DNA of 42,323 nucleotides from Escherichia coli (GTDB lineage Bacteria > Pseudomonadota > Gammaproteobacteria > Enterobacterales > Enterobacteriaceae). Made by a program: the position numbers and the translations under genes. The first letter of the stretch is position 1, and each line of letters starts with the position of its first letter. Positions 39,559 through 40,849 of this stretch are shown here, in pieces. Under the pieces are notes generated by a model. The model had not been told where the DNA came from. It was given only the letters and a program-made list of their open reading frames with translations, and ran no database searches. The DNA lies in NCBI RefSeq assembly GCF_003334385.1, contig NZ_QOWN01000038.1. One strand, written 5' to 3'.

Positions 39559-40849
39559 CAGGGCAAGATTACGAAAGCCCGCTCCTCGCAAGGACTGACG
39601 CCAGATAGTTTCTGTCCATGGCTGCTTTTCGCATCTTACGTCTTAACCCTGCCTTGAATACCTTATCATTCGTCAAAATATTAATAGCAATGTGCCGTAT
39701 CCCTGAAAATAATTCTGCTGCATTTCCTCTTCTTATTTTGCAGTCGTCTTCATTCATTACCACGTCCAGACGCCAGTGCAGCTTATTCTCCACGTGCCAG
39801 TGGTTTCGGATCGCTGTGGCGAACTTTTCTGCGGTTAAATCAGCAGAACTGATATAATATCTGACCGTCATTTCTGGCTCTTTCTTTTGTTCTGCTATTA
39901 TGGACCGAAAGGAGACTGCCACGCATAATTTCTTCAGCCCTTTCCATTCAAACGTGAAATCAATAAGTTCATCAGGGACATCGCAAACAATATGAAGACG
40001 GATTTCTTCTCTGCCGTGACTCTTTTCACTAATTGCGTAACTGTCATGCTCTGGATTATTTAATTCTTTCAGCGGAAATTTTTCCTCAAAGGCTTTATTT
40101 AGCCGCCCCTGGGTTCCTTTTACCGCGAATAAATAATCACCTCCCTGTTTTTGTATCTTCTCTGCAATATCTTTCTGGCAACCCATCGCATCAGTTGTGA
40201 TGATTTTTCCTTTAATATCCAGCATGTTAAGAAGTTCTGGGATAGCTGTAATCTCATTAGATTTCTCATCCGTCTTGATCTGTCCGATGACCAGACTGTG
40301 CATTGTTGAGAACGCACTAATGACATGAATCGCTCCCCTGCGGCGACTCTTGTCATAAGAGTGCCGGAGCGTTTTTCCATCAATTGCAATGACGTCTTTA
40401 TCATCTGAAGAATGGCAGTCACGCATCCAGTTAATAAAGCACTCGTGAAATTTTGCAGGACTGATACAGGATACAACTCTGGCAATGGTATCGTGAACAG
40501 GAATACCATTTTCAAAATCACCATATTGCTTCAAAAAATCGAGATGTGTTTCCCCAAAATCCTCTATATCTTCCCAACCTTCTGCACCAGAAATAACGGC
40601 ACAAATAGTCAACAGTAGAATATCTGACAATTTATGTTCCACTTTCCTGGCTTGTCTGTAATCGGGGATAATAGAAATATGTTCCATCAATTTTTTAAGT
40701 TCCATTTTGTTCTCCTTAATTATGTAAGAAGTATTTGATCATGTATAAGCAATAAAAAACAGCTTCAGGTAATAAGGAATATCTCAATTTTTAAACATAA
40801 AATGCGAATTATTTAGTGCAAAAAGTGAACTTTTGATGATCTTTCCCTG
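39559..40849 (-). mobile_element. ISAs1-family (H-repeat-type) insertion element, about 1.29 kb
   Basis: Imperfect terminal inverted repeats: left end cagggcaagattacgaaagc (39559-39578) versus revcomp of right end cagggaaagatcatcaaaag (40830-40849), 14 of 20 identical; the single transposase ORF fills the element; the right boundary coincides with the point where the adjacent yibA-like reading frame loses sense. Confidence 0.6.
39569..40705 (-). CDS. yhhI: H-repeat-associated (ISAs1-family) transposase
   Basis: 378-aa [67 protein letters not shown]..., characteristic of Rhs-linked H-rpt transposases. Confidence 0.9.

Follow-up and report, generated by a model that had tools for sequence, protein, structure and literature searches.

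The stretch of DNA analyzed here, 42,323 nucleotides of an Escherichia coli contig (NZ_QOWN01000038.1; hereafter the window), very probably carries at positions 39559–40849 a complete copy of the insertion sequence ISEc1 (H-rptB, yhhI), which lies between two unrelated flanks and owes its present surroundings to a rearrangement that followed its insertion. The element is 99.07% identical to the K-12 yhhI element across all 1291 bp and 96.4–99.5% identical, over positions 1–1291, to copies that RefSeq annotates as belonging to the ISEc1 family; in the matching genomes, the RefSeq name of the gene is ‘yhhI: ISAs1-like element ISEc1 family transposase’. A published table also gives full ISEc1 copies as 1291 bp long, with flanks that do not match each other (PMC6963479). 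The K-12 RefSeq record has no mobile_element feature at yhhI. The coordinates of the features described below are collected in Table 1.

Table 1 Features of the window at and around the ISEc1 copy
Feature	Position	Strand	Remark
REP/PU, left half, the insertion site of IS1397	39477–39494		right half absent; from comparison with IHE3034
IS1397 (IS3 family) terminal remnant, 64 bp	39495–39558		cut by the ISEc1 end
ISEc1/H-rptB, ISAs1 family, 1291 bp	39559–40849	−	similarity to other copies ends exactly on both sides
IRR (terminal inverted repeat at the 3′ end of yhhI)	39559–39578		holds the stop codon, 39569–39571
yhhI transposase gene, 378 aa, intact	39569–40705	−	NF033564 and Pfam
Non-coding leader within ISEc1, 144 bp	40706–40849	−	one promoter-like site
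IRL (terminal inverted repeat upstream of yhhI)	40830–40849		pairs with 39559–39578
yibA-like HEAT-repeat gene, 5′ part (yrhC pseudogene in K-12)	40850–41196 (region to 41211)	−	cut by ISEc1

Elements of the ISAs1 family are about 1.2–1.5 kb long (the ISfinder range) and contain a single long ORF. The window element has this organization, its one ORF of 378 codons taking up 88% of the 1291 bp. The earlier note, made from the letters of the window, had assigned it to the H-repeats of this family, and the assignment is upheld by the NCBIfam equivalog model NF033564 (transpos_ISAs1), which the product matches over profile positions 1–314 of 314 with a score of 412.3 bits (cutoff, 70). At the level of Pfam domains, the transposase contains both the N-terminal domain of the family (DDE_Tnp_1_assoc, residues 8–94, E = 5.7e-34) and the DDE domain (DDE_Tnp_1, residues 102–343, E = 1.7e-29). 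The short imperfect terminal inverted repeats characteristic of the family are likewise present. Among the family features that we compared, only the target duplication of about 8–10 bp is missing at the window insertion, and it does hold for the element type, as described below. Two members of the same family, IS1358 (Vibrio cholerae) and ISAs1 (Aeromonas salmonicida), are about 1.2–1.3 kb in size, carry a single DDE transposase gene between short, imperfectly repeated termini and duplicate about 8–10 bp of the target, but their hosts and sequences differ from those of ISEc1.

Compared with K-12 YhhI, the transposase of the window copy has substitutions at residues 19, 20 and 374. Residues 20 (codon 40646–40648) and 374 (codon 39584–39586) are arginines in the window, whereas W20 and G374 are found in all eight of the other 378-aa copies compared, the K-12 copy included. 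Judged from this conservation pattern, the loss of the tryptophan (W20R) may have rendered the window copy inactive. The leader upstream of the gene contains a weak promoter-like site (40747 to 40719, TATACA-17-CATAAT), which is a match to the consensus only, and such sites were no commoner in a promoter scan of the leader than in its shuffled versions.

The boundaries of the element had originally been drawn from a 20-bp imperfect inverted repeat with 14 identical positions, the left member of which was said to overlap the transposase stop codon. Direct comparison of 39559–39578 (CAGGGCAAGATTACGAAAGC) with the reverse complement of 40830–40849 (CAGGGAAAGATCATCAAAAG) reproduces both statements: 14 of the 20 positions are identical, as are 10 of the 11 outermost ones, and the stop codon falls within the repeat. 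This is the best pair of 20-mers that can be formed between the two flanks of yhhI. Taken alone, the inverted repeat is statistically indistinguishable from chance (94 of 200 sets of shuffled flanks, or 47%, reach at least 14/20), and it is not among the 25 longest inverted repeats listed for the window. Because shuffled flanks match as well, we argued the ends of the element from the comparison of multiple copies instead.

Positions 39300–41100 of the window were compared by megablast with 5426 complete E. coli genomes. The copies at other loci match positions 260–1550 of this query, which correspond to window positions 39559–40849. The copies examined are located inside rhsB (L006), inside other rhs genes (L015, L016) and inside tssA (L017), beside nfrB (L007, L010, L011), beside pptA (L008, the ydcC copy), near yafV (L009, L018, L023) and in other Rhs arrays (L019–L022). 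At the left end, the share of the commonest base steps from 0.43 outside to 1.00 inside exactly at 39559 (9 distinct flanks), and at the right end it steps from 0.91 inside to 0.44 outside exactly at 40849 (11 distinct flanks). The full-length copies all start with CAGGGCAAGATTACGAAAGC and finish with GATCTTTCCCTG, with unrelated DNA beyond, save that the copy beside pptA finishes with ...CCCTA. The length of about 1291 bp and both ends proposed in the earlier note are thus recovered in copies from 9 left and 11 right contexts.

The same comparison bears on the idea that the 14/20 pair is a coincidence and that the real ends lie elsewhere, either in a longer composite or in a shorter core. The shuffling result agrees with this idea, as do the few BLAST matches (H14, H22) that reach 4–7 nt past the ends. 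Conservation across independent contexts, however, switches exactly at 39559 and 40849, the target duplications described below abut the equivalents of these two positions, and the extensions by a few bases represent chance similarity of the flanks. We therefore regard a different pair of ends as extremely improbable.

The two termini are not conserved to the same depth. At the 39559 end, all 20 bases are invariant in nine copies with different flanks. At the 40849 end, the outermost 13 bases are kept in 11 copies (the last base differs in one of them) and the inner seven of the 20 are not the same in all sequence variants; a functional repeat of about 11–13 bp is therefore probable. The conserved terminal core reads CAGGG[C/A]AAGAT[T/C]A.

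Four of the copies elsewhere are enclosed by perfect direct repeats that lie flush with the ISEc1 termini. These repeats are GCATCCTGCC (10 bp) and TCGCTGTTC (9 bp) for the two copies inside rhs genes (L015 and L016, respectively), GTCAACTGAC (10 bp) for the copy inside tssA and GTCAAATCCT (10 bp) for one of the copies in the Rhs arrays (L019). For the tssA copy, we constructed an empty-site query in which the two flanks were joined and one GTCAACTGAC was kept. The joined flanks constitute uninterrupted tssA and were found contiguous, with 100% query cover, in all eight of the matches listed; 1250 genomes cover at least 80% of the query. The sibling duplications and the restored tssA gene show that ISEc1 extends exactly from CAGGG to CCCTG, that it duplicates 9–10 bp of its target, and that it has transposed in natural E. 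coli. H-repeat transposition has been stated as never observed (PMC3032704), and a mobilome preprint contained no excision data for ISAs1 elements. The comparison of occupied and empty sites that the earlier note had called for, carried out here on this sibling copy, leads to the same termini, and the full-length copies do not place the ends anywhere but at the equivalents of 39559 and 40849.

The window copy itself is bounded by no target duplication, the longest direct repeat common to its adjacent flanks being no more than 4 nt. The absence of a duplication had been noticed before, and this observation stands; its attribution to the age of the insertion does not, because the two flanks are unrelated sequences, namely the end of an IS1397 element and a yibA-like pseudogene.

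On the left, positions 39495–39558 can be aligned with the terminus of a complete IS1397 from another genome (L003; TGAACTGA...GTATT), and the similarity stops at the ISEc1 junction. The remnant adjoins half of a REP sequence, the whole palindrome of which (GGCCGGATAAGGCGTCACGCCGCATCCGGC) is present at the equivalent site downstream of yhhJ in strain IHE3034. The K-12 RefSeq record shows no feature over the equivalent of 39477–39558, which comprises the IS1397 stump and the half REP. The hairpin-plus-REP (BIME-like) sequence at 39409–39492 has a 79%-identical copy at 25772–25858 of the window, and complete IS1397 copies occur in similar BIMEs elsewhere in E. coli. We considered whether an intact IS1397 is found at the yhhJ REP in any genome: the best ten matches all start at query base 30, outside yhhJ, and appear to be copies in such BIMEs elsewhere.

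On the right, the yibA-like gene ends after nucleotide 347 of 843 and contains an internal stop codon at 40951–40953; RefSeq labels the fragment ‘HEAT repeat domain-containing protein, missing C-terminus’. Strain S40 (L002) carries an intact 843-bp yibA (HEAT-repeat) gene after yhhH at its RhsA site. Window positions 40850–41700, which hold the fragment and yhhH, are 98.9% identical to this strain, with 40850 as the exact first position of the similarity.

The two flanks of the window ISEc1 were therefore never neighbours, and at least one rearrangement must have taken place after the insertion and removed one of the original flanks. It is conceivable that ISEc1 makes no duplication at all, or that a duplication has decayed with age, in which case the flanks would still represent the original site. 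Most of the sampled ISEc1 copies do lack matching flanks, as do those reported in PMC6963479. Such an origin is nonetheless very improbable, since four copies retain perfect, flush duplications of 9–10 bp, one of them with a verified empty site, and since the window flanks are pieces of IS1397 and yibA and not diverged duplicates of each other.

The left junction of the window copy is present in 1841 of the 5426 complete E. coli genomes, the right junction in 1808 and both in 1802. With both junctions found in about one third of the genomes, the arrangement is old and inherited, and it was fixed early. The empty site of the window copy, represented by its two 300-bp flanks joined together, was contiguous in none of the 5426 genomes. 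The same set contained neither of the two possible progenitors at a cover of at least 80%, i.e. an intact yibA adjoining the 39559 end or the remainder of IS1397 adjoining the 40849 end. As neither a progenitor junction nor an empty site was found, the order of events and the mechanism of the deletion can only be inferred.

By analogy to other DDE elements, the transposase would bind both termini at the conserved core and cut there, and the ends would be joined to target nicks staggered by 9–10 bp. To account for the arrangement in the window, we propose that ISEc1 first inserted into either IS1397 or the yibA-like gene, and that a deletion anchored on one end of the element then removed the DNA up to the other flank. 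This deletion would have taken away the remainder of IS1397, the other half of the REP and the 3′ portion of the yibA-like gene, together with any intervening DNA. The duplication predicted for an insertion into the yibA-like gene at the equivalent of 40850 is GCCGTTGACT, and that predicted for an insertion into IS1397 at the equivalent of 39558 is GTCCTGTATT. The likeliest route of the deletion would be intramolecular transposition, with recombination between two co-oriented copies as the alternative.

Deletions that adjoin ISEc1 ends are found in two of the genomes compared. In the rhsB copy (L006, 1500/2792), 200 bp of rhsB are missing beside a precise ISEc1 end, and there is no duplication. 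Another locus (L013, 2801–3378) has the window's left junction, but its right junction lies about 163 bp further inside the yibA-like gene; ISEc1 positions 48–760 are lost from it, and it is a derivative of the window arrangement. These two cases favour an IS-end-anchored deletion as the origin of the window arrangement as well.

The right part of the second locus, however, belongs to another sequence variant than the window copy does, and this is more easily reconciled with two copies having recombined than with a simple nested deletion. According to this alternative, homologous recombination between co-oriented ISEc1 elements, one in IS1397 and the other in the yibA-like gene, left a single hybrid copy and deleted the DNA between them, so that the route of the rearrangement is all that sets this alternative apart from our preferred explanation. 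Two observations speak for it: ISEc1 copies and fragments are often found several at a time in Rhs loci, where they are co-oriented, in tandem or nested (L018, L019, L020, L023), and the locus in question combines the window's left junction with a right part from another variant and with another right junction. On the other hand, neither of the single-insertion progenitors that two-copy recombination presupposes occurs in the 5426 genomes, and the 200-bp deletion in rhsB is explained more simply by one copy and an end-anchored deletion. We consider recombination between two copies a plausible but less than even prospect, and an end-anchored deletion following a single insertion remains our preferred account.

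The window corresponds to the E. coli yhiI-rbbA-yhhJ/RhsB region in the orientation opposite to that of K-12. Its minus strand carries, in this order, rhsB, yhhH (41301–41684), the yibA-like fragment and ISEc1, followed by the core gene yhhJ, which ends at 39404. The element thus does separate the Rhs cassette from yhhJ, as the earlier note had it, and takes the position typical of an H-repeat: downstream of the rhs tip and immunity genes, co-oriented with them and at the edge of the Rhs island. The same layout at the edge of an Rhs island is seen at the nfrB, pptA/ydcC, ybgA/ybfC and yafV sites. For the region 41656–42323, in which a 176-aa ORF starts from a TTG codon at 42186, a truncated rhsB and a separate gene were also considered. 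The reading frame continues without a stop as far as the last base of the window, however, and both readings fall away: the region encodes the C-terminal tip of RhsB with its DPLGL motif, and rhsB is incomplete here simply because the window stops within it.

The K-12 MG1655 RhsB locus is the closest known counterpart of the window. Its ISEc1/H-rptB (yhhI, b3484) occupies the same locus, has the same flanks and the same length of 1291 bp, lies in the same order of genes (rhsB, yhhH, yrhC′, yhhI, yhhJ), and differs from the window copy at about 12 nucleotides. Other E. coli ISEc1 elements (the ydcC, ybfD/ybfL, rhs, tssA and PAAR copies) have identical termini, are 96–99% identical and are co-oriented with rhs or type VI secretion system (T6SS) genes. 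In contrast to the window copy, four of the other copies keep the 9–10 bp duplications of a simple insertion. The K-12 yhhI element has also served as the reference for an H-repeat remnant in Salmonella O-antigen gene clusters, where the H-repeat was proposed to mediate a recombination that joined unrelated flanks (PMC3715488). The joining of unrelated flanks in that case parallels the non-contiguous flanks of the window copy, but only a remnant of the element is present at the Salmonella O-antigen locus, whereas the window copy is complete and located at an Rhs locus.

In each of about 15 contexts of a non-random sample (L006–L011, L015–L023), the transposase gene of ISEc1 points in the same direction as the rhs or T6SS genes next to it, and most insertions of this sample are situated in or just downstream of rhs, PAAR and tssA genes. 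We put forward, as a rather improbable speculation, that ISEc1 may have been active until recently and may select Rhs/T6SS operons as its targets, always entering them in one orientation, and that end-anchored deletions would then prune arrays of orphan toxin tips and immunity genes there. If so, the window copy would be a fixed example of such pruning, in which the DNA from the 3′ part of the yibA-like immunity gene to yhhJ was removed.

Knowledge of ISEc1 and of its tie to Rhs loci dates from the 1990s, and the identity of the window element as ISEc1 was already known as well, which makes its recognition a correct but ordinary finding whose importance beyond good annotation is small. What the present analysis adds is (i) base-exact ends of ISEc1 derived from natural occupied and empty sites, (ii) clear evidence of ISEc1 transposition in E. 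coli with duplications of 9–10 bp, and (iii) the reason why the much-cited K-12-type copy has no duplication, which is that an IS1397 stump lies on one side of it and a cut yibA-like gene on the other. These results can be used in reconstructing the trimming of Rhs islands and in masking IS ends during variant calling.

Several minor observations were made in the course of these comparisons. Two of the four target duplications begin with GTCAA, the complement of which is contained in GCCGTTGACT, the sequence that an insertion at the yibA site would have duplicated. At the ybgA-ybfC (RhsC) site of one genome (L020, 4291/4292), an ISEc1 is inserted inside another ISEc1 at target position 910/911, and the downstream fragment of the interrupted element is annotated as ybfQ. 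Finally, the interval between yhhJ and nikR (L012, L014) is a variable hotspot: it is occupied by the RhsB island in K-12-type strains and by a hicAB toxin–antitoxin pair in strain ET565, and in IHE3034 the genes beside yhhJ are sugar-utilization genes, which encode a class II aldolase, an HPr-family protein and an FGGY-family kinase.
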